From UHGV virus genome UHGV-0204592: a stretch of 7,397 nucleotides of DNA; one strand, given 5' to 3'. The notes below the pieces were generated by a model. The model had not been told where the DNA came from. It made no database searches and saw only the letters and a list, made by a program, of their open reading frames with translations. This stretch comes from a virus. Positions 1 to 7,397 of this stretch are shown here, piece after piece. Numbering within the stretch: position 1 is the first letter of the stretch; every line of letters starts with the position of its first letter. The position numbers and the translations under genes were made by a program.

Positions 1-261
1 ATGGTATATCATGTTTTAGGTATTGAGAGGTTCGAAGGCATTGCTAAAAAGACAGGTAAGCCTTATGATTTTACCCGTTTTTATTCTGTTCCTTCCCGTC
101 AGCCGGATAAGGTCCGTGGTGTCAGGGTGGAAAATGTGGATGTTTATAACGGTCAGTATGCGCCGGATATTTCCGATATCCATCCTGAGGACTATGTGGA
201 TTTCAGTTTTAACCGCAGGGGTTATGTTGATGCTGTCCAGATAGTTGATTCCCCTAATTAG
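1..261 (+). CDS. Gene-V-like ssDNA-binding protein (86 aa)
   Basis: 86 aa, the same size as M13 gVp (87 aa). From memory, it shares motifs with M13 gVp: 'TGKPYDF' versus 'QGKPYSL', and 'NGQYAPDI' versus 'GQPAYAPGL'. There is no upstream sequence in a linear reading, but the window's last bases (GTGAGGA at 7385-7391) would be an ideal SD 6 nt before this ATG if the sequence is circular. The stop is TAG at 259-261. Confidence 0.7.
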   Translation: MVYHVLGIERFEGIAKKTGKPYDFTRFYSVPSRQPDKVRGVRVENVDVYNGQYAPDISDIHPEDYVDFSFNRRGYVDAVQIVDSPN

Positions 262-274
262 TGTATGCACGATT

Positions 275-306
275 CCCCGGCCCCAGGTATTATCTAGGGG
301 CCGGGG
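275..306. other. GC-rich hairpin (10-bp perfect stem CCCCGGCCCC / GGGGCCGGGG, 12-nt loop) in a 173-nt GC-rich non-coding island
   Basis: Read directly from the sequence. No U-tract follows on either strand, so it is not a typical terminator. An overlapping alternative hairpin GGGGA-TACTCCT-TCCCC spans 303-319. Confidence 0.6.
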
Positions 307-434
307 ATACTCCTTCCCCTTGATTGCTGATTGGTGCCAGGTTCCTGGCGGTCGCGGTTCATCATGTCCCGGATGCACCTACGGTGTCGCGGATATGGGA
401 AATGTGTTACAGATTATAAGAAAGTAGTGGTTGG

Positions 435-656
435 ATGAAAATTGAACTTACGGAACGTGAATTACGATACCTTAACCGGGTAGTAAACGTCCGTCTGGAT
501 GAATTATTGGAACGTTGCGCCAGGATATGCCGTATTCGTTCCCTTGATGATATAAACACGTCAGAGCGTTTCAGCATTGCGGAATCTGAAATCAAGGTTT
601 TGAAATCAGTTCATGATAAGGTTGCTGATGCTCTTTCGGATTCTTCTTTGTCATAA
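435..656 (+). CDS. Hypothetical helical protein (73 aa)
   Basis: Intact ORF beginning at an ATG. It is predicted to be all-helical and charged, with no signal peptide or TM segment. The SD is weak (GGTTGG). It lies between the GC-rich island and the pIII-like gene. Function unknown. Confidence 0.5.
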   Translation: MKIELTERELRYLNRVVNVRLDELLERCARICRIRSLDDINTSERFSIAESEIKVLKSVHDKVADALSDSSLS

Positions 657-717
657 CAGATGTACTATCCACTTAATAAAATAAAGTAACTATTCCTAAT
701 AAGTCTAGTTTAACGAA

Positions 718-725
718 TAGTTAGT
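718..725 (+). repeat. TAGTTAGT motif, copy 1 (upstream of the pIII-like gene)
   Basis: An exact 8-mer. The context is AATAGTTAGTTAC. Confidence 0.6.
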
Positions 726-783
726 TACAAATTAAGCATTGATTAGTACATCTTTTAACAATTTGTTAGGGGGTGTATTTTTT

Positions 784-2055
784 ATGTTTAAGCGTGTCGT
801 AACAATCATTTTAGTATCTCTCATATCATTGACTTGTGCTTTTGGTTCGTTCGCGTCTGAAATTGCTACATCCTCTAGTGCCCAATTAAATATTGCCACA
901 TCTAGTAATGCAATGCCTTCAGATGATTTTGATACGTTGGATGCTCCTGTACTCATGTCCTCTGGTGATTTACCATCTGTATCTAATACTGTTTATCGGT
1001 CTTATATGAAATTAGGCTGTTTTTATTATAATATGTCTGGTGTGACAAAAACTGCTGTGGTCGGCTTTGATTCTGGTGGTTATGCTTCTTTGCCTTTGCC
1101 TTCGGATGCTGCTAGCGTTCGTAAAATTTTTATTATTCTTCCTAGAGAATCCTTGCCCTCTCCAGGACGTTATAATGTATCCATCCGTTTTGCTTCTAAT
1201 ACTGGTGTTACTTATAAGGATTGCTTATTATATACAGAAAAGCAAAGTGTAAATACATCTAATGAATCAACGACGGATTATATATCCTATTCCCAATTAT
1301 CTGGCGATTGGTATGCTACTACTGTTGTTGATTTGAATAGTGTAAGTAAATTACAATTTGAGCTGGCTCTGCAATCTGTTTCAACGTCGAATTTGCCTTA
1401 TGGTGGTTATGTTAATGTTTGTTTTAAGAAAACCAATAGTCAGGCTGACATAGTTACGGCTGGTGGTGTTTATACGTCTGATGATGCGACAAAGGATATT
1501 GCTAATAATTCCGCTCAGCAGGTCGAACAAGGTGAAACTATCATTGAATTAATCAAAAATACGATACAGACGATTAGTTCACAATTGACGGCTTTCTGGA
1601 ATCAGTTGGCTGGGGAATTTACCAATCTTTATGCAAAGATGACCCAGCAACATTCTGAACAGTTACAGGCTGACCGGGATAATACGGATGATATCATAGC
1701 TGCTGAGGAATCCAATACCACTAACATCATTAACAATAACAATGCGAATACGGATAAGTTATCGAATGGTTATGATAATTCTGGTATGAATTCCGATAAT
1801 GACCGATTGAATGGTTCACTTAAGGAATATGACCAGGCCGAAGATAACCTGATGGAGGATGTTAATACAGGGATTGGGAACATAGATTTTGATTTCAGTT
1901 TTGACAGTACATTATCCGTCATATCAACTGTTTCCGATTTCCTGCAAGGTATTTATGAACGTTCCGGTGGGTTCCAGGTGGTCATAAATGTATGTCTTAT
2001 CCTCTCCCTCGCTTCCTGCGCCGTTGGTCTGTACCGTTTAAAGGGGGGTGGGTAA
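784..2055 (+). CDS. pIII-like minor coat / adsorption protein (423 aa), secreted with a C-terminal membrane anchor
   Basis: The ORF track starts at 739, but the first ATG with an SD (AGGGGGTG at 768-775, 8 nt upstream) is 784. It has an N-terminal signal peptide (MFKRVVTIILVSLISLTCAFGSFA|SE). A Ser/Thr-rich N-terminal domain is followed by an Asn-rich low-complexity linker (NIINNNNANTDKLSNGYDNSGMNSDND). The C-terminal hydrophobic anchor is VVINVCLILSLASCAVGLY followed by RLKGGG. Its size and architecture match M13 pIII (424 aa). Confidence 0.65.
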   Translation: MFKRVVTIILVSLISLTCAFGSFASEIATSSSAQLNIATSSNAMPSDDFDTLDAPVLMSSGDLPSVSNTVYRSYMKLGCFYYNMSGVTKTAVVGFDSGGYASLPLPSDAASVRKIFIILPRESLPSPGRYNVSIRFASNTGVTYKDCLLYTEKQSVNTSNESTTDYISYSQLSGDWYATTVVDLNSVSKLQFELALQSVSTSNLPYGGYVNVCFKKTNSQADIVTAGGVYTSDDATKDIANNSAQQVEQGETIIELIKNTIQTISSQLTAFWNQLAGEFTNLYAKMTQQHSEQLQADRDNTDDIIAAEESNTTNIINNNNANTDKLSNGYDNSGMNSDNDRLNGSLKEYDQAEDNLMEDVNTGIGNIDFDFSFDSTLSVISTVSDFLQGIYERSGGFQVVINVCLILSLASCAVGLYRLKGGG

Positions 2056-2274
2056 ATGTTTAAGTTCTTTGAATCCATTGCCAATATCTTTAAGACGGTT
2101 GTTGATTTTGTCATTGACCTATTCCAGATGCTTCTTGGCCTGGTGGAACTTATTGTAAAAGGGTTTGGTTTTCTGATGCGTGTCATCAATGAACTTCCCC
2201 CGTTCCTGATACCATTTGCGCTTGGGTTTATCTGCCTGGCTATCCTGTTCCAGATTCTTAATAAAGGGAGTTGA
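2056..2274 (+). CDS. Small hydrophobic virion/membrane protein (72 aa, 2 predicted TM); pVI-like candidate
   Basis: The ATG directly abuts the TAA of the upstream gene (gggTAAATG), and a G-rich SD (AAGGGGGGTGGG) lies upstream. The protein is very hydrophobic with two predicted TM helices. Confidence 0.6.
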   Translation: MFKFFESIANIFKTVVDFVIDLFQMLLGLVELIVKGFGFLMRVINELPPFLIPFALGFICLAILFQILNKGS

Positions 2275-2278
2275 TTGT

Positions 2279-2440
2279 ATGTTAGGTTCATTCCTTCAAT
2301 TTGTTCTTGATGTATTCGGTGGTATGATTGGGCTTCTTCAATATACGGAACTTGGCGGTTTTACCTTGGAGGATGTCCTTGTTGCCATCCTTATTGTTAC
2401 GATTGTTGCCCGTACTGTGATTGTAAAGTTTGGAGAATGA
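2279..2440 (+). CDS. Small hydrophobic protein (53 aa)
   Basis: The track ORF 2216-2440 is shortened to the ATG at 2279, which has the SD AGGGAG (2265-2270) 8 nt upstream. The sequence is MLGSFLQFVLDVFGGMIGLLQY...IVTIVARTVIVKFGE, giving 1-2 TM helices. Confidence 0.55.
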   Translation: MLGSFLQFVLDVFGGMIGLLQYTELGGFTLEDVLVAILIVTIVARTVIVKFGE

Positions 2441-2441
2441 T

Positions 2442-3275
2442 ATGGTTCTTTTGATAGTGGTATTCATGCTTCTGTTCTCCTTTCCTTCCTATGCTGTTCC
2501 GGTTGCGTCTCCCTCTGAGGTAGGGAAGGTGTTGGAAGATGGTGATGTTTTGGAAAATGATGAAATTGTGGATGATGATGATATTTCTTCAGTCTTTGAT
2601 GACCGGCCCGATTTTTATTATGAATCCATGGAGGACATGAACGATGATGAGGTTCTTAAACGTATACTTGCCGAAGTTGTATCTATTAGCGATTCTATGG
2701 GTGGCCCTGTTGCTACTCCTTCAGATGCTACCAGGCCTGACAGTGATGCCTTGGAGGATGAGGAAATTTCTCCTGACGGTGAGGAGGTTGATACAGCTTC
2801 TTACACTCTGGATGCCGATTCCTTTGCACAGGGCTCTGAGGATACTTACGTTAATGTGTTGCGTTTTGATATTACTTTTAACAACCATGATTATATTTTA
2901 CTGATTCCGCCGGAATACGTGGATAATCTTTATATAGATGGTAATGACCGTCTTTGGAACATGTCTACCAGTAATATTACAGGCCGTATCGTGGATGCTG
3001 GATTTAATCCTTTGGTGACAGAGGGCAGGCTGATGTATCTCTCTCCCTGTCTTGGCAATATCTTTTCCACGGTGAATGAATACGGCAGTCCCAATTATAT
3101 GCGTACTTATTATTGGAGTTCCGGCCGTCTTACTTATTCCACATCCTATGGTGTGATTACAGTAAATAAATACCATAATCCGTTTTATGTATCCCAGACC
3201 ATGGATTATATCATGTTGTTTGTTGTGACAGGAGGTGTTTTATTCATATGTTTGAACAATTACAAACGTTATTAG
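2442..3275 (+). CDS. Secreted acidic protein with a C-terminal TM anchor (277 aa); second minor coat/adsorption candidate
   Basis: ATG at 2442 with SD GGAG (2432-2435) 6 nt upstream. The track start at 2430 is a TTG. Signal peptide MVLLIVVFMLLFSFPSYA|VP. There is a strongly acidic Asp/Glu-rich region (DEIVDDDDISSVFDD...EDEEISPDGEE). The C-terminal TM is IMLFVVTGGVLFICL followed by NNYKRY. Confidence 0.6.
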   Translation: MVLLIVVFMLLFSFPSYAVPVASPSEVGKVLEDGDVLENDEIVDDDDISSVFDDRPDFYYESMEDMNDDEVLKRILAEVVSISDSMGGPVATPSDATRPDSDALEDEEISPDGEEVDTASYTLDADSFAQGSEDTYVNVLRFDITFNNHDYILLIPPEYVDNLYIDGNDRLWNMSTSNITGRIVDAGFNPLVTEGRLMYLSPCLGNIFSTVNEYGSPNYMRTYYWSSGRLTYSTSYGVITVNKYHNPFYVSQTMDYIMLFVVTGGVLFICLNNYKRY

Positions 3276-3394
3276 GTATTACAGTTCCGGTACAGTTTGA
3301 ACCTGTCCTGATTACCATTACTGCCGTCTTGTTCCTCTGGCTTCTCTCCTTTTTTGGCGAGTTGCTTAAACTTATCATATTACGTTGGGGTTGA
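3248..3394 (+). CDS. Small hydrophobic protein (48 aa); pVII/pIX-like candidate
   Basis: Hand-translated as MFEQLQTLLGITVPVQFEPVLITITAVLFLWLLSFFGELLKLIILRWG*. It is below the 60-aa track cutoff. AGGAGG at 3230-3235 lies 12 nt upstream, which is longish. It overlaps the 3' end of the preceding gene in another frame. It has a single TM helix and a basic C-terminus. Confidence 0.4.
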   Translation: MFEQLQTLLGITVPVQFEPVLITITAVLFLWLLSFFGELLKLIILRWG

Positions 3395-3558
3395 TGTCCA
3401 TGTGGGAGGATTTCTCGATTATTTTTAATGATGGGATTCTGGTCAATGCCAAGGTCCTGATTGATTTCCTTTTAGGTGATGGTATTTATTTAGGTGCTGT
3501 TGTTATTCTCCTGCCCCTGCTTGGCAGGTTAATAAAGTTTTTTAAAAATTTATTTTAG
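3394..3558 (+). CDS. Small coat-like protein (54 aa; alternative start at 3400 gives 52 aa)
   Basis: Hand-translated as MSMWEDFSIIFNDGILVNAKVLIDFLLGDGIYLGAVVILLPLLGRLIKFFKNLF*. The start overlaps the upstream stop (TGATG coupling). It has an acidic N-terminus, one TM helix and a basic C-terminus (RLIKFFKNLF), which is the classic inovirus coat-protein layout without a signal peptide, as in Pf3. It is below the track cutoff. Confidence 0.45.
   Translation: MSMWEDFSIIFNDGILVNAKVLIDFLLGDGIYLGAVVILLPLLGRLIKFFKNLF
3521..3549 (+). promoter_or_regulatory. Candidate promoter for the major coat gene: -35 TTGGCA (3521-3526), 17 nt, -10 AAAAAT (3544-3549)
   Basis: An AT-rich tract with an A/T palindrome TTTTTTAAAAA immediately upstream of the strong coat RBS. 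The hexamers are each a 4/6 match. Confidence 0.3.
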
Positions 3559-3569
3559 GAGGTGTTTTT

Positions 3570-3860
3570 ATGTTGCAGAGAGTAAGAAATAGGTTCCAGA
3601 AGTTCATGTATGGCCTTTTTGCCGTACCGTTCCTTATGGGTATGACAGCTTTTCCGGCCTATGCGTCTGAATCTGGTGCAGGTTCTGCTTCCCTTACGGA
3701 TACACTCAGTATCTTCACGGAAGTGTTCGCCTGGTTCCTCAAGGAAGGTGGTAACCTGCTGGCCTGGATGCTTGACAAGCCCATCATCCTTCTGTCGCTG
3801 GCTGTTTTCTTTGTCGGCGCTGTGATTGGTGTCCTTGCCCGTATCTATAGCAGTTTTTAG
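3570..3860 (+). CDS. Major coat protein precursor (pVIII-like, 96 aa; about 64 aa mature)
   Basis: It has the best RBS in the window: AGGAGG at 3557-3562, 7 nt before the ATG. It has a long signal peptide ending AFPAYA|SESGAG. The mature part has an acidic, amphipathic N-terminus, a TM helix (IILLSLAVFFVGAVIGVLA) and a short basic tail (RIYSSF). An AT-rich promoter-like region lies upstream. Confidence 0.65.
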   Translation: MLQRVRNRFQKFMYGLFAVPFLMGMTAFPAYASESGAGSASLTDTLSIFTEVFAWFLKEGGNLLAWMLDKPIILLSLAVFFVGAVIGVLARIYSSF

Positions 3861-3881
3861 TGACTTATCGTTTCTTTGTCA

Positions 3882-3905
3882 GGCCGGGTTTCGCCCGGTC
3901 TGATA
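3882..3905 (+). terminator. Weak hairpin (GGCCGGG-TTTCG-CCCGGTC) after the major coat gene; possible attenuator
   Basis: A 6-7 bp GC stem 22 nt after the coat stop codon, followed by CTGATATTT, which is a weak U-tract. This is analogous to the terminator after gene VIII in Ff phages. Confidence 0.3.
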
Positions 3906-3919
3906 TTTGGAGGTATGTT

Positions 3920-4078
3920 ATGTTTGGGATTCTTCCGGTCTTTTGGGATTTCTTCTTCTCCCCTCTCCTGGCCTTTGATATAGATAGTCCTATTTTTGCG
4001 CCTATTGCTTTATGTCTGGTTGTCCTTTGTGTATTCCGCTTTGTCAGGAGGATATTTTCATGGTGTTTTTCGTTTTGA
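3920..4078 (+). CDS. Small hydrophobic protein (52 aa)
   Basis: The track ORF 3860-4078 begins at a GTG. The first ATG with an SD (GGAGG at 3909-3913, 6 nt upstream) is at 3920. The sequence is MFGILPVFWDFFFSPLLAFDIDSPIFAPIALCLVVLCVFRFVRRIFSWCFSF. The 3' end overlaps the ATPase gene start. Confidence 0.45.
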   Translation: MFGILPVFWDFFFSPLLAFDIDSPIFAPIALCLVVLCVFRFVRRIFSWCFSF

Positions 4079-4824
4079 TTATCCTGTTTTTTATTCTTTT
4101 CATTGGGTACCATTTAATTCGCTATCGTAATCCCTATAAATTAATCATGGTCATAGGTAAAAAAGGCTCTGGTAAAACCACGTTAATGGTCAAACTATCG
4201 TTGAAGTATAACAAGAGGAAACGGCCTGTGTTCTGCAATGCTCCTGACATTCCTGGTACATATTACTTTGAGCCTGAAATGTTGGGTTCTGTCGGTTTCC
4301 CGGAAAACGCAATCATTATGGTTGACGAGGCTTCCAGGTATTGGGATAACCGTGATTTTAAGAATTTTCAGAAGAAGACCTTTGACTATTTCCGTTTCCA
4401 GCGGAAATACCGTCATACGGTTTATCTATTTTCCCAAAGTTTTGATGTTGATAAGAAACTTAGGGACCTTACGGACCGAATGTATTTAGCGACTAATGTC
4501 TTTAATGCATTTTCAGTTGCCAGGGGTATTGCCAAGGCTCCCACGATTACCCATGCGGATTCTAACCAGGCTGGTGAATCTAAACTTGTGGATGATATAC
4601 ATTTTGAGAGCCTGCTTCTGTTCTGGGCCGGCTCTGTCCGTATTACTTATCTGCCAAAGTATATAAAATACTTTAATTCGTTTGACCCTCCTTATCTTCC
4701 AGAAGGTCAATTTACATATACGCCATTCATCAAGCGGAAACGAAGGGCCCCCGCCTGTGGCGGGCCCGTAGTTGAAGCGATAGAGGATAAAATGGATGAT
4801 GACTTCGGACCCCCGTCTAATTAG
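4060..4824 (+). CDS. Zot/pI-like morphogenesis ATPase (254 aa) with an N-terminal TM anchor
   Basis: Walker A motif MVIGKKGSGKTTL and Walker B motif AIIMVDEAS. The N-terminal region resembles the Zot/pI N-domain, for example M13 pI MAVYFVTGKLGSGKT. The start was chosen at ATG 4060 (SD AGGAGGA at 4046-4052, 7 nt upstream) rather than the track's ATG at 4012, which has no SD. An alternative start at 4147 would begin exactly at 'MVIGKKGSGKT' but has no SD. There is no C-terminal TM or periplasmic domain. Confidence 0.7.
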   Translation: MVFFVLIILFFILFIGYHLIRYRNPYKLIMVIGKKGSGKTTLMVKLSLKYNKRKRPVFCNAPDIPGTYYFEPEMLGSVGFPENAIIMVDEASRYWDNRDFKNFQKKTFDYFRFQRKYRHTVYLFSQSFDVDKKLRDLTDRMYLATNVFNAFSVARGIAKAPTITHADSNQAGESKLVDDIHFESLLLFWAGSVRITYLPKYIKYFNSFDPPYLPEGQFTYTPFIKRKRRAPACGGPVVEAIEDKMDDDFGPPSN

Positions 4825-4835
4825 GTCCGAAGTCC
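4801..4835. other. Perfect 11-bp hairpin GACTTCGGACC / GGTCCGAAGTC enclosing the ATPase stop codon in its 13-nt loop
   Basis: Read directly from the sequence. It is followed by a second 7-bp hairpin ACTTTGT / ACAAAGT (4850-4873), then TTT, then the rep RBS. Confidence 0.6.
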
Positions 4836-4891
4836 TGAAAAATTCTTTCACTTTGTAGTATTCTTCACAAAGTTTTAGGAGGTATTCCCTT

Positions 4892-5812
4892 ATGCTTTAT
4901 TATTACAATCCATTGATTGAGGACGGTATATTTTACTCTTGTGATTCCCTTCGGTTCTCTTTTGTTTTCCCAGATGCGGACACAGTAGAAGATTTCCTTA
5001 CCTTCCTCTCCCGCCTTCCCGGCTCCACCCATTACCAGTCCTTAAAGGATTTTGATTACAGATACCTTTATGTGTTTGGTATTAAAGGATTGAGTTTCAG
5101 TATCGGCCTTTGTATGAATGGGATTAAAAAGGAAACCGTCTTACAAGGCTTTTTGGATTTTAACCCTAATAAGATACTCGGTGATATATCCTATGGCAAT
5201 GGATTTATGGGTACGGTTCATTCCCCGTTTAGTAATGAGGAATCTTCCTACAAGGATTTAAGGTGTCAGATAAAAGAGATTCTGATGGAGGTTATGGAAA
5301 ACCTTTGGTCATGTACGGAAGAAATAAGAATCAAACGTTGGGATTTAGCTGTGGATGTTCCGTATGGTCGCGATTGTGTCCAGCTTATCAAGGATAACAG
5401 GAAATACAGTCAGTTTTATAAATCGGCTCAGGATTTTACAGAGTATTTAGGGTCTATGTCAAGTCCAGGACGTGTGAAGATTTACAATAAACAGATTGAG
5501 GCGGAATTGGACTATCCCCTCACCCGGATTGAAGTCACATTGGATAGCTTGGATTTCATTGACTGTTGCCGATGCTGGCCCAATGTCTATACCCGTAAGG
5601 TAATCGACCTGGCAGAAACCAAGGTCATTGTGCAGTTGCTTTCGGAGCAACCAGTAGATAGGATGGATTATTATCTCCGTCAGATGTCGGCCCCTACGAA
5701 ACGTAGATACAAGGCCCTGCTCCTGGAACGTCCCTTTGAGGTTACAGGTCCTGTCTTTAACAAGTTGCGGAATCAGTTATTGAGATATCAGGAGGGGGAT
5801 TTTTATGAATAG
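4892..5812 (+). CDS. Rolling-circle replication initiator, Rep_trans (pT181 RepC / CTXphi RstA) family, 306 aa
   Basis: SD AGGAGG at 4877-4882. From memory, the segment 'GRVKIYNKQIEAELDYPLTRIEVTLD' aligns with the pT181-family active-site region '...RIYNKKQERKD...WRVEIELKRD', whose Tyr is the nicking residue. Here that residue is Tyr198, codon TAC at 5483-5485. The upstream motif 'KRWDLAVDVPYG' resembles the conserved acidic metal-binding motif of the family. Confidence 0.7.
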   Translation: MLYYYNPLIEDGIFYSCDSLRFSFVFPDADTVEDFLTFLSRLPGSTHYQSLKDFDYRYLYVFGIKGLSFSIGLCMNGIKKETVLQGFLDFNPNKILGDISYGNGFMGTVHSPFSNEESSYKDLRCQIKEILMEVMENLWSCTEEIRIKRWDLAVDVPYGRDCVQLIKDNRKYSQFYKSAQDFTEYLGSMSSPGRVKIYNKQIEAELDYPLTRIEVTLDSLDFIDCCRCWPNVYTRKVIDLAETKVIVQLLSEQPVDRMDYYLRQMSAPTKRRYKALLLERPFEVTGPVFNKLRNQLLRYQEGDFYE

Positions 5813-5984
5813 ACCAGTTGGGAAAATCAAGGTCAGTGCATATCTTACTAAGAAGCAGTATAACCAGCTTTGCCGATACATGGAATATTGTGGGTGCTAT
5901 TCCACCTCTGCGGAACTGGTTACCAGGTTTGTATCGATTGGCCTGGCTGATGCCGTCAAGCGTGGGGTAATTGATGATGATTAG
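5805..5984 (+). CDS. Small ribbon-helix-helix-like protein (59 aa), translationally coupled to rep
   Basis: Hand-translated as MNRPVGKIKVSAYLTKKQYNQLCRYMEYCGCYSTSAELVTRFVSIGLADAVKRGVIDDD*. The ATG overlaps the rep stop, and SD GGAGGGGG lies 6-8 nt upstream. The predicted beta-strand (KIKVSAYL) followed by two helices fits an RHH/CopG-like fold. It is below the track cutoff. Confidence 0.4.
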   Translation: MNRPVGKIKVSAYLTKKQYNQLCRYMEYCGCYSTSAELVTRFVSIGLADAVKRGVIDDD

Positions 5985-6060
5985 TAACACATGGTTGCCC
6001 TGGCTCCAGCTGTGATGGGAAACAGCCTGCAGGAAAATTGTGTTACATAGATAAAGATAT

Positions 6061-6092
6061 CCCCGGCATAGTGCCGGGGATTTTGTTGTTAT
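6061..6092. terminator. Bidirectional rho-independent terminator between convergent transcription units
   Basis: Perfect 8-bp GC stem CCCCGGCA / TGCCGGGG with a 3-nt loop (TAG) at 6061-6079. It is followed on the + strand by ATTTTGTTGTT and on the - strand by a TTTAT-rich run. It sits exactly between the end of the + operon (5984) and the end of the - strand 77-aa gene (6089). Confidence 0.75.
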
Positions 6093-6322
6093 TCTACCTT
6101 TGGTAAAATTCCTTTAGCCTCCATTACTTCTACCAGTGTGTCCATTCCGTCATTTATGTGATGAATTTCTTTTCTGATGGAACGTTCTGAGGTTTTCATG
6201 TCCAGTCTTAGTGTATCCATCTGGATTTTTAGTTCTGATATTTGTAAGTCTATATCCTCTAGTTTGTTTGTAATCGGTGCTAATAGTGTTTTCATTGTTT
6301 CTAACATCTCTTTATCTGTCAT
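6089..6322 (-). CDS. Small coiled-coil protein (77 aa), function unknown
   Basis: Strong SD on the minus strand (AAGGAGGA, 8 nt before the ATG). The sequence is MTDKEMLETMKTLLAPITNKLEDIDLQISELKIQMDTLRLDMKTSERSIRKEIHHINDGMDTLVEVMEAKGILPKVE, predicted all-helical with a heptad-like pattern. It is co-oriented with, and downstream of, the repressor gene. Confidence 0.6.
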   Translation of the reverse strand: MTDKEMLETMKTLLAPITNKLEDIDLQISELKIQMDTLRLDMKTSERSIRKEIHHINDGMDTLVEVMEAKGILPKVE

Positions 6323-6429
6323 TTTGTTGTCCTCCTTGATATTCTACTTACATCATATCATTAAAATCCATTCTCGTCCATCCTGGTGCGTTACAGGGGG
6401 TTATTTATCTTTTGTATTGATGTAATCAC

Positions 6430-6774
6430 TTAGCCGTATAATCTTTTCTCTTCCGTGTCATTATGTTGTGTTTCTCCTTCAAGTAAGTTCATATAGGCTT
6501 CTAACAGTGCTTTTTTATTGTTATCGTATTTTCTATATTTGGATATGATTTCTTTTTCTTTTGGTGTGTATTCCGGTTTTTTTAGTTCAAATAATTCATC
6601 CGATGATATACCAATATATTGTAATACTAATACAAATTTATCCATTGCTGGTTTTGTTCCGTTTTTCCAGCTTGATAATGTTGTTTGTCCTATTCCTGTT
6701 GCTTTGCTTACTTGATATGCGGATATTCCTTTTTCTTCCATTATTTTGAAAAGTTTTGATATATAATTTTCCAT
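6430..6774 (-). CDS. XRE-family (Cro/CI-type) HTH transcriptional repressor, 114 aa
   Basis: Canonical HTH_XRE signature ISAYQVSKATGIGQTTLSSWKNGTKP. The start was set at ATG 6772-6774 (SD GGAG 6 nt upstream on the minus strand). The track's extra 4 residues begin at a TTG. It is divergent from the main rightward promoter. Confidence 0.75.
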   Translation of the reverse strand: MENYISKLFKIMEEKGISAYQVSKATGIGQTTLSSWKNGTKPAMDKFVLVLQYIGISSDELFELKKPEYTPKEKEIISKYRKYDNNKKALLEAYMNLLEGETQHNDTEEKRLYG

Positions 6775-6802
6775 GTTTTGCTCCAAAATATTGAATTAAC
6801 TA

Positions 6803-6831
6803 TTGACTGCTACAAAATATTGTAGTATACT
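6803..6831 (+). promoter_or_regulatory. Sigma-70-type promoter: -35 TTGACT (6803-6808), 17-nt spacer, -10 TATACT (6826-6831)
   Basis: A 5/6 match in each hexamer with ideal spacing. It drives the 6939 ORF and probably the whole rightward unit around the circle. The -10 lies inside the palindrome AGTATACT. Confidence 0.6.
6810..6825. promoter_or_regulatory. Candidate operator: perfect inverted repeat CTACAA-AATA-TTGTAG inside the promoter spacer
   Basis: 6-bp arms with a 4-bp centre, lying between the -35 and -10 elements. This is the classic placement for a dimeric HTH repressor site. Confidence 0.5.
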
Positions 6832-6863
6832 ATTAGTGTAAGGATAAGTAATGATTAAGCGCT

Positions 6864-6871
6864 TAGTTAGT
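6864..6871 (+). repeat. TAGTTAGT motif, copy 2 (repressor/early-promoter intergenic)
   Basis: Exact 8-mer. Confidence 0.6.
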
Positions 6872-6890
6872 ATTTATTTTACCACATTTT

Positions 6891-6898
6891 TAGTTAGT
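6891..6898 (+). repeat. TAGTTAGT motif, copy 3
   Basis: Exact 8-mer, 27 nt after copy 2. Confidence 0.6.
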
Positions 6899-6912
6899 CT
6901 ACAAGGTTCATT

Positions 6913-6920
6913 TAGTTAGT
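6913..6920 (+). repeat. TAGTTAGT motif, copy 4 (26 nt before ATG 6939)
   Basis: Exact 8-mer, 22 nt after copy 3. Confidence 0.6.
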
Positions 6921-6938
6921 TAATTGGGAGGGTTTTAC

Positions 6939-7133
6939 ATGATGGATAAAAAGCGTGTTAGAGAGACGTTAAATAGTCTTGTTGATTCCTGGTGTACAGA
7001 AAAACCTATGTATAGAGTAGATTTATCATGGATTCGTGGACAGATATTTTTTGCTTATTTGATTGAGGCTATTACCCTATCTGAGAAAGAAGAAATGCTT
7101 CAGCGTGTGTCCGAAGCAAAGGAGGGTTGTTAA
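6939..7133 (+). CDS. Hypothetical early protein (64 aa)
   Basis: ATG 6939 with SD GGGAGGG (6926-6932) 6 nt upstream. The track start at 6924 is a TTG. It is the first gene after the repressor-controlled promoter. No recognisable motif. Confidence 0.5.
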   Translation: MMDKKRVRETLNSLVDSWCTEKPMYRVDLSWIRGQIFFAYLIEAITLSEKEEMLQRVSEAKEGC

Positions 7134-7313
7134 ATGCGTAGACTTTCCAAGGCTCTCTTAGAGCAGGAACAAAATGAAACCAGCGTGGCAATCTGTCGTG
7201 CCATGGCGTTGCATGACCAGTGCCGTGTTGATGTACTACAGTATCATTTTTCCCGTCTTGAAGCCATCTTGTCTTACATAAATGAGGATTCAGACGATAT
7301 TCCGCCTGTTTAG
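7134..7313 (+). CDS. Hypothetical early protein (59 aa)
   Basis: Hand-translated as MRRLSKALLEQEQNETSVAICRAMALHDQCRVDVLQYHFSRLEAILSYINEDSDDIPPV*. The ATG immediately follows the TAA of the upstream ORF, and SD AGGAGGG lies 7 nt upstream. It is below the track cutoff. Confidence 0.45.
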   Translation: MRRLSKALLEQEQNETSVAICRAMALHDQCRVDVLQYHFSRLEAILSYINEDSDDIPPV

Positions 7314-7316
7314 GTA

Positions 7317-7358
7317 GCCCCCAGGGTATCCCTCTGTGGCTCTGCCCTGGTCTATAAT
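7317..7358 (+). promoter_or_regulatory. GC-rich dyad element (CCAGGG...CCCTGG) followed by a perfect -10 TATAAT (7353-7358)
   Basis: CCAGGG at 7321-7326 pairs with CCCTGG at 7345-7350. A consensus TATAAT lies 3 nt downstream with no good -35. It lies upstream of the window-end RBS. It shares the motif GCCCC(C)AGG(G)TAT with position 280-290. Confidence 0.35.
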
Positions 7359-7367
7359 ATAACCAAT

Positions 7368-7375
7368 TAGTTAGT
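7368..7375 (+). repeat. TAGTTAGT motif, copy 5 (30 nt before the ATG at position 1 if circular)
   Basis: Exact 8-mer. A further TTAGTT occupies the last 6 nt of the window. Confidence 0.6.
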
Positions 7376-7397
7376 TTAAAGAAAGTGAGGATTAGTT

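Follow-up and report, generated by a model that had tools for sequence, protein, structure and literature searches.

The window, i.e., the whole stretch of 7,397 nucleotides analysed here, has a GC content of 40.2% with 35% T, and 15 of its 17 genes are encoded on the plus strand. The following features were assigned, with the basis of the assignment in brackets.

1-261, plus strand: RstB-like protein, 86 aa, candidate ssDNA-binding protein and as such a functional analogue of gV (PHROG 929 and fold)
262-434, plus strand: conserved non-coding block with a 13-bp GC hairpin at 274-306 (DNA fold, conservation)
435-656, plus strand: soluble protein, 73 aa, last gene of the prophage form, position conserved in all relatives
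688-722, no strand assigned: attP, 35 bp, AACTATTCCTAATAA GTCTAG TTTAACGAATAGTT, mimic of the host 34-bp dif-like site
784-2055, plus strand: protein with signal peptide and C-terminal membrane anchor, 423 aa (hydropathy, signal of the AFG/SFA type)
2056-2274, plus strand: protein with two membrane segments, 72 aa (hydropathy)
2279-2440, plus strand: membrane protein, 53 aa (hydropathy)
2442-3275, plus strand: protein with signal peptide, acidic linker and C-terminal anchor, 277 aa (hydropathy)
3248-3394, plus strand: single-span protein, 48 aa, coat or minor coat candidate (hydropathy)
3394-3558, plus strand: hydrophobic protein with basic C-terminus, 54 aa, coat candidate (hydropathy)
3570-3860, plus strand: precursor with signal peptide (AYA/SE), acidic N-terminus and one membrane helix, 96 aa (topology, SD)
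3860-4078, plus strand: ORF with two hydrophobic segments, GTG start and no SD, 72 aa (uncertain gene)
4060-4824, plus strand: Zot/pI-type assembly ATPase, 254 aa (PF05707)
4892-5812, plus strand: rolling-circle initiator Rep with divergent Rep_trans fold, 306 aa (family profile, AF2, Foldseek)
5805-5984, plus strand: small protein with SD, 59 aa (ORF)
6059-6081, no strand assigned: bidirectional intrinsic terminator between convergent genes (hairpin and T run)
6089-6322, minus strand: coiled-coil protein, 77 aa (weak coiled-coil Pfam matches only)
6430-6774, minus strand: Cro/CI-type HTH repressor candidate, 114 aa (HTH_3)
6803-6831, plus strand: sigma-70-like promoter of a long rightward operon (TTGACT-17-TATACT, 10/12)
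6844-6924, plus strand: palindrome and three TTAGTTAGT repeats, candidate operators (sequence)
6939-7133, plus strand: small protein, 64 aa (ORF)
7134-7313, plus strand: small protein, 59 aa (ORF)
7385-7391, plus strand: SD GTGAGGA of the first ORF, across the junction of 7397 and 1 (sequence read)

The original prediction of a Zot/pI ATPase is borne out by a PF05707 score of 28.3 bits (cut-off 20.3); the protein carries an N-terminal membrane helix, a Walker A (GKKGSGKT) and a Walker B motif (IIMVDEA), it matches PHROG 25712 (E 7e-26), PHROG 197 'Zot-like' (4e-10) and PHROG 1675 'protein I of M13' (3e-4), and the Zot genes of bajarodino viruses are recovered by blastn. By hydropathy, one or two membrane segments are present in each of six small proteins, in line with the about six expected; for the 2056-2274 product no Pfam match was found, and the ORF at 3860-4078 is uncalled in near-identical contigs. 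The anticipated coat-type protein with a signal peptide is present as the 96-aa precursor, which is preceded by the best SD of the window (TAGGAGGTG). It belongs to no homologue family found in Pfam or PHROG, and its topology and position make it the best major-coat candidate. For the proposed pIII-like protein there are two candidates, again by topology and position, namely the 423-aa and the 277-aa protein, both without a family match in Pfam and PHROG. The start of the former was taken from the genes called in contig L018, and its central part is common to tip-like genes of neighbouring elements.

The 86-aa product of the first gene had been described as a gV-like ssDNA-binding protein. It stands as a ssDNA-binding candidate but not as a member of the gene V family, since the Pfam profile search gave no match to PF02303 and the protein is RstB-like (PHROG 929 'RstB', E 2e-5; Pfam CTX_RstB, E 0.07). 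The AF2 model (pLDDT 90) shows five beta strands, and its best Foldseek matches are OB-fold SSBs at a non-significant level (E of 0.18 or above). Members of its nr cluster are named 'RstB-like protein [Inoviridae sp.]', and for the E. bolteae homologue an HHpred match to CTX_RstB of 99.5% was reported (Table S5 in PMC10061712). Similarly, the predicted Rep_trans initiator was recovered by its fold and not by the Pfam cut-off of PF02486, as the single sequence reaches 12.7 bits compared to the 29.6 bits needed. Its family profile matches the staphylococcal RepD-type structures 4CWE/4CWC (E 6e-9) with the motifs FNPNK, RxDxAxD, TEYLG, YNKxxE and TRxE aligned, and the AF2 model (pLDDT 88) has 4cwe, 4cwc and 4cij as top Foldseek matches (E 2e-11 to 6e-8). 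Together, profile and modelled fold support its membership of the Rep_trans-type initiators, with Tyr198 in KIYNK as the predicted catalytic residue; by hhalign against a single canonical Rep_trans sequence the probability is 28%. The pT181-family initiators RepC/RepD (4CWC, 4CWE, 4CIJ) share its fold and its motifs, FNPNK and the Tyr in (I/V)YNK among them, whereas the identity is only 15-17% and the Rep of the window is phage-encoded. Downstream of the RstB-like gene, the non-coding block at 262-434 folds as DNA with -29.4 kcal/mol (z -2.15) and contains long invariant runs among relatives with only 74% overall identity, and may be an origin or a packaging signal.

The CI-like repressor of the original prediction was confirmed as a Cro/CI-type protein (HTH_3 38 bits, cut-off 23; PHROG 3, 8 and 4 'repressor', E 1e-10), with an additional weak match to NCBIfam phage_RstR (E 8e-5). 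The sigma-70 promoter proposed at 6803-6831 was found again in the divergent intergenic region, and its assignment rests on this position because the consensus scan shows no excess of promoter-like sites over chance (18 found, 20.2 expected). A fourth TTAGTTAGT copy lies at 7367. The terminator claimed at 6061-6092 corresponds to the strongest terminator-like structure of the window, a hairpin at 6059-6081 of ten pairs, seven of them GC, followed by a T run on the plus strand. Strong SDs (AGGAGG, GGAGGG, GGGGGTG) precede most genes. The TATAAT box at 7353-7358 is present on direct reading; in the consensus scan no -35 hexamer partnered it. With respect to the small genes, the 435-656 product has no family match in Pfam and PHROG, and the 5805-5984 product has no Pfam match and is possibly a ribbon-helix-helix regulator as judged by eye only. 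Relatives carry inserted cargo beside the position of the 6089-6322 gene.

The window had been proposed to be a complete, circularly permuted inovirus-type genome, and prophage copies of this unit support this. Copies of 7,433 bp with 99.9-100% identity are present in at least four gut metagenome contigs (L015-L018). Window positions 688-7397 correspond to L018 3292-10000 (99.94%) and positions 1-724 to L018 10001-10724 (100%), and the arrangement in the other three contigs matches. Hence base 7397 is directly joined to base 1 in independent assemblies, as it is in 74%-identical relatives, and the SD GTGAGGA is continued over TTAGTT (7392-7397) to the ATG at position 1. The unit length is exact, as 7,433 equals 7,397 plus the 36 of the repeated att sequence (BLAST identity over window positions 688-724). 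Because the junction is contiguous in the prophage contigs and the attachment site is uninterrupted within the window, the sequence reads as a closed circle opened at the ATG of the first ORF. Searches of the window for a secretin, an integrase, tRNAs and Rfam families were all negative. The absence of secretin and integrase thus agrees with the earlier description, but a purely episomal life does not follow from the missing integrase, given the integrated state of the near-identical prophage copies and the dif-like attP of the window. The attachment site at 688-722 had been overlooked in the original prediction. The Firmicutes host can be named as Enterocloster, given the protein records of Enterocloster citroniae and aldenensis and the presence of the att site in Lachnospiraceae genomes. 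We consider it likely, with good confidence, that a temperate filamentous phage (Tubulavirales, inovirus-like) that infects Enterocloster (Lachnospiraceae) is represented here by its entire circular genome, opened to a linear form at the ATG of the RstB-like gene.

The att sequence is duplicated at both prophage ends, and the 14 integrated copies examined all have the canonical sequence of the host at attL and the left arm of the phage at attR. The right arm and the 6-bp centre of attP are identical to the host site, which consists of 34 bp with 14-nt inverted arms around a GTCTAG centre. Each of 46 Lachnospiraceae species has this site once and with an invariant sequence, in loci that are mostly empty and with flanks that are not conserved. 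In the chromosome of Lacrimispora sinapis it is located at 50.1% of the length, and in the 6.37-Mb sequence of Enterocloster aldenensis at 49.8%. With the loci arranged in the orientation of the site, GC skew is positive on the left flank in 42 of 45, and among the 27 loci that extend 1.5 kb or more to each side it is higher on the left than on the right in 24. Host genes converge towards the site. It is well supported that this is the chromosome dimer resolution (dif) site. Moreover, a Xer-family gene lies near the site in 37 of the 46 loci, to its right and on the same strand in 28 of these, mostly 34-1000 nt away, and on the opposite side in eight. The best model for the encoded protein is XerS (213 bits, NCBIfam cut-off 267) and the best PDB matches are XerD and XerA. 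The phage thus appears to enter the chromosome via a mimic of the host dif-like site and without an integrase of its own, which suggests, judged from sequence, a CTX/VGJ-style exploitation of Xer in a Gram-positive host.

It is possible, though rather unlikely, that the inovirus integrates without the neighbouring Xer-like recombinase, by another host enzyme, by a factor of the phage (for example, Rep or a small ORF) or by homologous recombination over 21-22 bp of identity, and that the 34-bp site is the target of a resident recombinase module and not a dimer-resolution site. In favor of this, the part of the recombinase in the integration reaction is a predicted one, in some loci its gene is separated from the site (in the host of the window by about 3.4 kb, with an intervening GGDEF/EAL gene), the protein scores below the XerS cut-off, and two of the four long chromosomes carry the site at 11% and 24%, in records whose start positions are unverified. 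However, the anatomy of the site is classical for a tyrosine recombinase, the site is invariant across genera unlike its flanks, it lies at 50% of the other two chromosomes and at a switch in skew and gene orientation, the crossover always falls within the centre or the right arm of att, and one relative with matching arms is altered only in the 6-nt centre. Improbable, in our view, is a window that represents an assembler-cut unit of a head-to-tail tandem prophage or a defective prophage that forms no particles. A tandem array would yield an identical attP-like junction and a circular-looking contig, the retrieved close copies are all integrated, and the virion data stem from relatives and not from the exact window sequence. 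However, a unit of such an array would still be a complete genome, the 16-17 ORFs are all intact and 99.9-100% conserved over many samples, with the protein of the first ORF in 148 blocks of the collection, and for related Enterocloster prophages DNase-protected DNA, filaments seen by EM and circular-junction products in qPCR were reported (PMC10061712). We regard it as very improbable that the window is a small plasmid or satellite, integrative and with rolling-circle replication, that has a Zot-like ATPase and takes its coat from a helper phage. The structural assignments all stand without homology, and other filamentous elements adjoin window-type prophages in arrays as possible helpers. 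However, the inovirus module is complete, with several small membrane proteins besides the signal-peptide coat candidate and two tip-like proteins, in the order of circular GenBank inovirus genomes (Zot, Rep, minus-strand repressor, RstB-like and structural genes), L018 and L012 hold the window-type prophage as sole filamentous element at the site, and a plasmid collection gave no match to the window.

For the temperate filamentous phage favored here, the following life cycle can be proposed. Rep, which belongs by family to the initiators described above, would nick a plus-strand origin, perhaps at 262-434, via Tyr198 to start rolling-circle replication, and the RstB-like beta protein might coat the plus strands. 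The membrane-anchored Zot/pI ATPase would extrude the DNA through the single membrane, for which no secretin is required, and the exiting DNA would gain the helical coat protein, of which the 96-aa product is the best candidate, and the two putative tip proteins; this step draws on the gene content of the window and on virions of the related Enterocloster phages only (PMC10061712). The minus-strand repressor faces the promoter at 6803-6831 and may control it, and transcription from there would read about 6.6 kb over the junction to the terminator at 6059-6081. The XerS-like tyrosine recombinase of the host, encoded beside the site, would integrate the double-stranded replicative form. As attL is regenerated as a perfect host site, further elements could stack there in arrays.

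This kind of phage is already known. Burckhardt et al. (2023, Microbiome; PMC10061712) described inoviruses of Enterocloster and Hungatella as prophages of 6.5-8.5 kb between direct repeats. These phages share with the window the host genus and the size range, and likewise encode an RstB-like protein, a RepD-type 'replication initiation protein' and a pI/Zot ATPase. The RstB-like protein of E. bolteae is clearly homologous to that of the window (about 70% identity by eye). The window represents a variant of the E. citroniae/aldenensis type, whereas the detail in that study is mostly on the E. bolteae type, and recombinase, Xer or dif are not mentioned in it. Furthermore, the Zot, Rep, 96-aa and 423-aa proteins are identical to nr proteins of a TPA 'Inoviridae sp.' record (DAF82166.1, DAF82167.1, DAF82171.1 and DAF82180.1), already named there as zonular occludens toxin and replication initiation protein; this record, which carries no att or dif annotation, probably matches the window over the whole genome. 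The bajarodino viruses and Dulem virus 72 (PQ006128, PQ006179, PP511697), circular inovirus genomes from rodent faeces and lemur saliva, have the gene order of the window but are only distant kin, with Zot DNA 70-82% identical over short stretches. The Rep of Dulem virus 72 is 36% identical to that of the window, and this virus also contains the TTTAACGAATAGTT arm.

With regard to mechanism, the closest parallels are phages of the CTX/VGJ type, which like the window are filamentous and integrase-less, encode a Rep_trans initiator (RstA), RstB, a divergent RstR-type repressor and Zot, carry an attP that resembles the host dif, integrate at dif and form heterologous arrays there. The VGJ type in addition shares the single double-stranded attP and the restoration of a functional dif on one side. 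In contrast, the window has a Gram-positive host and no secretin, Rep follows Zot in its gene order, its site comprises 34 bp (14+6+14) instead of 28 bp, and the candidate enzyme, in a role predicted for it here, is one XerS-like recombinase with a gene linked to the site instead of XerC and XerD. Single-recombinase Xer systems are XerS/difSL of streptococci and lactococci, XerH/difH and a system of Legionellales that was found via a mobile element (PMC9765430). Compared to difSL, the host site is unrelated in the details of its sequence and has a centre of 6 bp instead of 11 bp, and the recombinase, known here from its sequence, stays below the cut-off of the XerS equivalog. However, it has about 350 aa with XerS as best NCBIfam model, and as in these systems the gene adjoins the presumed site in most of the host genomes and the site lies at the terminus.

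The original prediction had described a complete, circularly permuted genome and had named contigs spanning positions 7397 to 1 as the check. In four independent contigs with near-identical prophage copies (L015, L016, L017 and L018), window positions 688-7397 align to 3292-10000 at 99.9% identity and positions 1-724 align to 10001-10724 at 99.9-100%. Since the two alignments abut, base 7397 is directly followed by base 1, and all four contigs cross that junction. The same contiguity was found in relatives that are only 74% identical (L005-L007). A 24-mer across the 7397/1 junction was not found in IMG/VR, and the junction was proven in its place via contigs encoding the exact ORF1 protein, which is present on many metagenome contigs (148 index blocks). 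The integrated element measures 7,433 bp, i.e., 7,397 plus the repeated att sequence, so that the window is neither short nor long of one unit. Moreover, the window joins the 73-aa gene to the 423-aa gene via an intact attachment site, attP, which the prophages do not, and this arrangement requires either a circle or a head-to-tail tandem. The window is circularly permuted, which had before only been inferred. Its start exactly at an ATG fits a record that was rotated to a gene start by a pipeline or a curator.

The window has a GC content of 40.2%, contains 35% T and is 89% coding, with 15 of its 17 genes on the plus strand. Gene starts were refined from the genes called on near-identical contigs.

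Genes of the window (coordinates, strand, product)
1-261, plus strand, ORF1, 86 aa
435-656, plus strand, 73 aa
784-2055, plus strand, 423 aa
2056-2274, plus strand, 72 aa
2279-2440, plus strand, 53 aa
2442-3275, plus strand, 277 aa
3248-3394, plus strand, 48 aa
3394-3558, plus strand, 54 aa
3570-3860, plus strand, 96 aa
3860-4078, plus strand, 72 aa, uncertain gene (GTG start, no SD)
4060-4824, plus strand, Zot, 254 aa
4892-5812, plus strand, Rep, 306 aa
5805-5984, plus strand, 59 aa
6089-6322, minus strand, 77 aa
6430-6774, minus strand, HTH protein, 114 aa
6939-7133, plus strand, 64 aa
7134-7313, plus strand, 59 aa

A small circular genome (about 5-15 kb) with nearly all genes on one strand and a pI/Zot-type morphogenesis ATPase, as expected for Tubulavirales, were both found. 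The Zot protein that had been recognized exceeds the Pfam cut-off (PF05707, 28.3 bits; cut-off 20.3) and PHROG matches to Zot-like and M13 protein I families concur. This ATPase is short (254 aa) and its sole membrane helix is N-terminal, ahead of Walker A (window 4060-4140); in Gram-negative pI proteins the membrane segment follows the ATPase domain. Hydropathy agrees with the predicted six small membrane proteins, and it assigns a signal peptide and a C-terminal anchor to each of two larger proteins and an AYA/SE signal peptide and one helix to the 96-aa protein (3570-3860). The candidate coat and tip proteins gave no homology matches and their topology fits the filamentous type; among three major-coat candidates (3570-3860, 3248-3394 and 3394-3558) the 96-aa protein was chosen on signal peptide, topology and SD. 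A plasmid origin was rejected after a search of the plasmid collection had given no match.

Regarding the gene content of relatives, close ones have an additional gene of the DUF2726 type (196-208 aa, 44 bits), located between the repressor gene and the small gene on the minus strand (L004 8343-8969, L005 6764-7390, L010 11860-12450), and some have a 110-aa ORF after Rep; the window has neither, and the region looks like a cargo hot spot. The 59-aa ORF at 5805-5984 overlaps the end of Rep and is without a Pfam match; by eye it has a beta-alpha-alpha pattern like ribbon-helix-helix regulators.

The assignment of the initiator to Rep_trans holds by PDB profile and fold, but not by the Pfam cut-off. 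As a single sequence, Rep scores 12.7 bits against PF02486 (cut-off 29.6; E 0.097), none of 68 Rep homologues has a precomputed Pfam match, and an NCBIfam search with Rep gave no match. An alignment of 26 homologues revealed the invariant motifs FNPNK, RxDxAxD, TEYLG, GxxKxYNKxxE and TRxE, and the family profile matches 4CWE/4CWC, which are staphylococcal structures of the RepD type, at E 6e-9 with these motifs aligned. The AF2 model (pLDDT 88, pTM 0.85) has 4cwe, 4cwc and 4cij as its top six Foldseek matches (E 2e-11 to 6e-8, TM 0.55/0.61), followed by TATA-binding proteins; the RepD fold has been described as TBP-like. Aligned by hhalign to one canonical Rep_trans protein of a neighbouring element, the Rep family reaches 28% probability with the same motifs aligned, and the assignment relies on the PDB profile match and the fold rather than on this result. 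Profile match and modelled fold thus identify Rep as a divergent Rep_trans-fold initiator, with Tyr198 as the predicted catalytic residue. In IMG/VR a single-sequence search with Rep gave no confirmed relative and an alignment-based search gave 14.

For ORF1, which had been taken for a gene V-like ssDNA-binding protein, the gene V profile PF02303 gave no match at E <= 1, and RstB, the ssDNA-binding protein of CTXphi, was matched instead (PHROG 929, E 2e-5, residues 1-34 only; Pfam RstB profile, 13.9 bits, cut-off 26.2). It is modelled with confidence (pLDDT 90) as a beta protein of five strands, and its nearest structures in Foldseek are OB-fold SSBs (Rim1, RPA, PriB, SsbA), none of them significant. 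Members of the ORF1 cluster are named "RstB-like protein" in nr, and for the E. bolteae homologue an HHpred match to CTX_RstB of 99.5% was published (PMC10061712). ORF1 appears to resemble RstB weakly and is not a gene V protein.

The predicted CI-like repressor is borne out by the 114-aa protein, which matches HTH_3 with 38 bits (cut-off 23) and PHROG repressor families. Its minus-strand gene faces the promoter at 6803-6831 and is divergent from the main operon. This sigma-70 promoter was retrieved by a consensus scan (TTGACT-17-TATACT); promoter-like sites are not enriched in the window (18 found, 20.2 expected), so that it is credible because of its position and not by statistics. The TATAAT at 7353-7358 is present in the sequence, but it was discounted as a promoter for want of an acceptable -35 hexamer and was missed by the scan. 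The SD at the junction can be read as described (GTGAGGA at 7385-7391, TTAGTT, then the ATG at 1), and the window's best hairpin followed by a T run lies at 6059-6081 between the convergent genes, in agreement with the proposed terminator. No structure above shuffles was found in 7305-7397. The non-coding block 262-434 shows no less conservation than the genes on either side and is the leading candidate for a replication origin or a packaging signal; its 13-bp GC hairpin (274-306) has an AT-rich loop and no T run and is therefore not a terminator.

The sole 9-mer with four copies in the window is TTAGTTAGT (6863-6871, 6890-6898, 6912-6920 and 7367-7375); further positions of note are 717-725 and 7392-7397. 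The hexamer TTAGTT occurs 11 times on the plus strand and not at all on the minus strand. The copies accumulate 3' of the promoter at 6803-6831, immediately ahead of ORF1 and right next to attP, and they may be operators or binding sites of an accessory protein; within 6844-6924, both the palindrome and the TTAGTTAGT repeats are operator candidates. In a variant whose Rep is 100% identical (L014), an insertion sequence of ~1.8 kb (L014 2124-3909) lies at window ~6920, exactly within the third TTAGTTAG repeat; it encodes a 494-aa DDE-type transposase (weak PF01609 match) and ends in 15-bp perfect terminal inverted repeats (ATAATCTCTCGGAAT) with a TTAG duplication.

The absence of a secretin and an integrase had been claimed, and Pfam and profile searches of the window's ORFs gave no match to either family; family searches found no integrase or transposase in any window ORF. 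The phage is not purely episomal, however, but temperate, with an attP resembling dif. tRNA and Rfam scans of the window were empty, so that integration is not into a tRNA. The repeat at the prophage ends corresponds to window 688-722. The host site reads AACTATTCGCGAAA GTCTAG TTTAACGAATAGTT, with inverted 14-nt arms that agree at 12 of 14 positions and enclose a 6-nt centre. The window's attP reads AACTATTCCTAATAA GTCTAG TTTAACGAATAGTT, i.e., centre and right arm are those of the host site, and its left arm is degenerate, 1 nt longer and shares 8 nt with that of the host. In all 14 integrated copies examined, attL matches the host site perfectly and the phage left arm is found in attR, which places the crossover in the centre or the right arm and shows that integration regenerates a perfect host site.

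Related arm sequences were seen in distant relatives. One of them (L078, 4879-4912) has identical 14-nt arms around the centre CCCAGG in place of GTCTAG, and a change of the centre alone would be expected if it were a spacer flanked by arms that bind a recombinase. The 29-nt terminal repeat of a circular contig (L079) includes the TTTAACGAATAAT arm, and Dulem virus 72 from lemur saliva (L003) has TTTAACGAATAGTT at 2992-3025. Furthermore, other elements that resemble filamentous phages form stacks with the window-type prophage at the 34-bp site (L005 9524-15718; L016 1-3290 and 10723-17500; L015 1-3290; L017 1-3290), some of them inverted and on the left side. Their initiators include one canonical 347-aa Rep_trans and one REP_ORF2-G2P, and window 1492-1732 has a segment in common with their tip-like genes. 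The "16 kb inovirus" that was reported for E. aldenensis (PMC10061712) is probably explained by stacking as well.

In a pattern scan of one genome per species, the 34-bp site was found in 46 species, once per locus, nearly all of them Lachnospiraceae (Hungatella, Enterocloster, Lacrimispora, Acetatifactor, Lachnoclostridium and others). Unoccupied sites are identical, bar G/A at one left-arm position in seven loci, and their flanks are not conserved. The site lies at 1,880,863 of 3,753,647 in Lacrimispora sinapis (50.1%) and at 3,169,750 of 6,369,821 in Enterocloster aldenensis (49.8%); two further long sequences, in which it lies at 11% and 24%, are uninformative. With loci oriented by the site, GC skew is positive in the left flank in 42 of 45 loci and higher on the left than on the right in 24 of the 27 loci with enough sequence, and host genes converge on the site. 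The site resembles difSL and the dif of B. subtilis too weakly for any similarity to be claimed.

A tyrosine recombinase of 350-354 aa is encoded in 37 of the 46 loci. Its best NCBIfam match is XerS (213.4 bits, below the cut-off of 267), followed by XerC, XerA and XerD, and its best PDB matches are XerD and XerA. The gene lies right of the site on the same strand in 28 loci, with its start 34-1000 nt from the site in 26, and on the opposite side in 8. In the window's own host (L015-L022), a GGDEF/EAL (cyclic-di-GMP) gene intervenes between the 34-bp site and the gene for the Xer-like recombinase. Several contigs have it called as two ORFs (718 aa and 135 or 188 aa) as opposed to one 904-aa ORF, possibly because of a frameshift in this allele. 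In L010-L012, where it adjoins the prophage, the recombinase could be read as a phage integrase. This was rejected: the circle is without such a gene, empty sites in more than 30 species retain it, and it stays put when other elements occupy the site.

The data fit a dif-like site with a linked single Xer recombinase, and judged from sequence comparison we consider it fairly probable that the integrase-less phage would exploit both for its integration. More tentatively, and with a little less than even confidence, AACTATTCGCGAAA-GTCTAG-TTTAACGAATAGTT and the XerS-like recombinase might constitute a previously undescribed system by which much of the Lachnospiraceae (Enterocloster, Hungatella, Lacrimispora, Acetatifactor and others) resolves chromosome dimers, and this phage and the unrelated stacked elements might be the first Gram-positive IMEXs, exploiting a single-recombinase Xer system. 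No description of a 34-bp dif or of Xer exploitation here was found in the searchable literature, although this absence is not proof. Neither PMC10061712 nor the main text of Roux et al. (2019) mentions a recombinase or Xer, a dif survey of 2011 included no Lachnospiraceae, and reviews of single-recombinase systems and IMEXs list proteobacterial IMEXs only.

The kind of phage is already known from the description by Burckhardt et al. (2023; PMC10061712) and from identical proteins in nr. These authors reported inovirus prophages of 6.5-8.5 kb with direct-repeat flanks in Enterocloster and Hungatella. They detected DNA protected from DNase, observed filaments (500-800 nm) by EM and amplified the circularisation junction by qPCR. 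A filamentous virion that contains single-stranded DNA and leaves the cell without lysis, a further hallmark of the group, has been shown only for these related Enterocloster prophages. The Zot, Rep, 96-aa and 423-aa proteins are identical to DAF82166, DAF82167, DAF82171 and DAF82180 ("MAG TPA ... Inoviridae sp."), and the window sequence has very probably already been deposited. ORF1 and the Rep cluster also occur in Enterocloster citroniae and E. aldenensis records, and IMG/VR holds relatives of 7-8 kb cut from isolate genomes. The order of Zot, Rep, repressor (minus strand), RstB-like and structural genes is shared with circular inovirus genomes in GenBank that originate from rodent faeces and lemur saliva.

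As a summary, the original observation is confirmed and its interpretation stands with three corrections, i.e., the RstB-like ORF1, the basis of the Rep_trans assignment and the temperate lifestyle with a dif-like attP. As annotation the genome is ordinary, given that Gram-positive gut inoviruses of Enterocloster are published and its proteins are in nr; it is a member of that published group, and its integration mechanism may be the one new part. The value thus lies in the mechanism of lysogeny. If the reading of attP and dif is true, it would explain how integrase-less inoviruses integrate and build up arrays in abundant gut Clostridia, Xer exploitation would reach beyond Proteobacteria, and one 34-bp motif would flag both the terminus and the site of dimer resolution in many genomes of Lachnospiraceae. 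Such a motif could help to orient genomes and to delimit prophages, and genetic tools for these bacteria, which are hard to engineer, would gain a natural landing pad.

Compared with known systems, the linkage of the recombinase gene to the site is the arrangement of XerS/difSL, where a site is likewise accompanied by a linked single recombinase. As in the CTX/VGJ type, attP resembles the host site at which integration takes place and the element does not encode a recombinase; the VGJphi type of Vibrio is also an integrase-less element exploiting dif, and the stacking at the 34-bp site recalls the CTX/RS1/TLC arrays.
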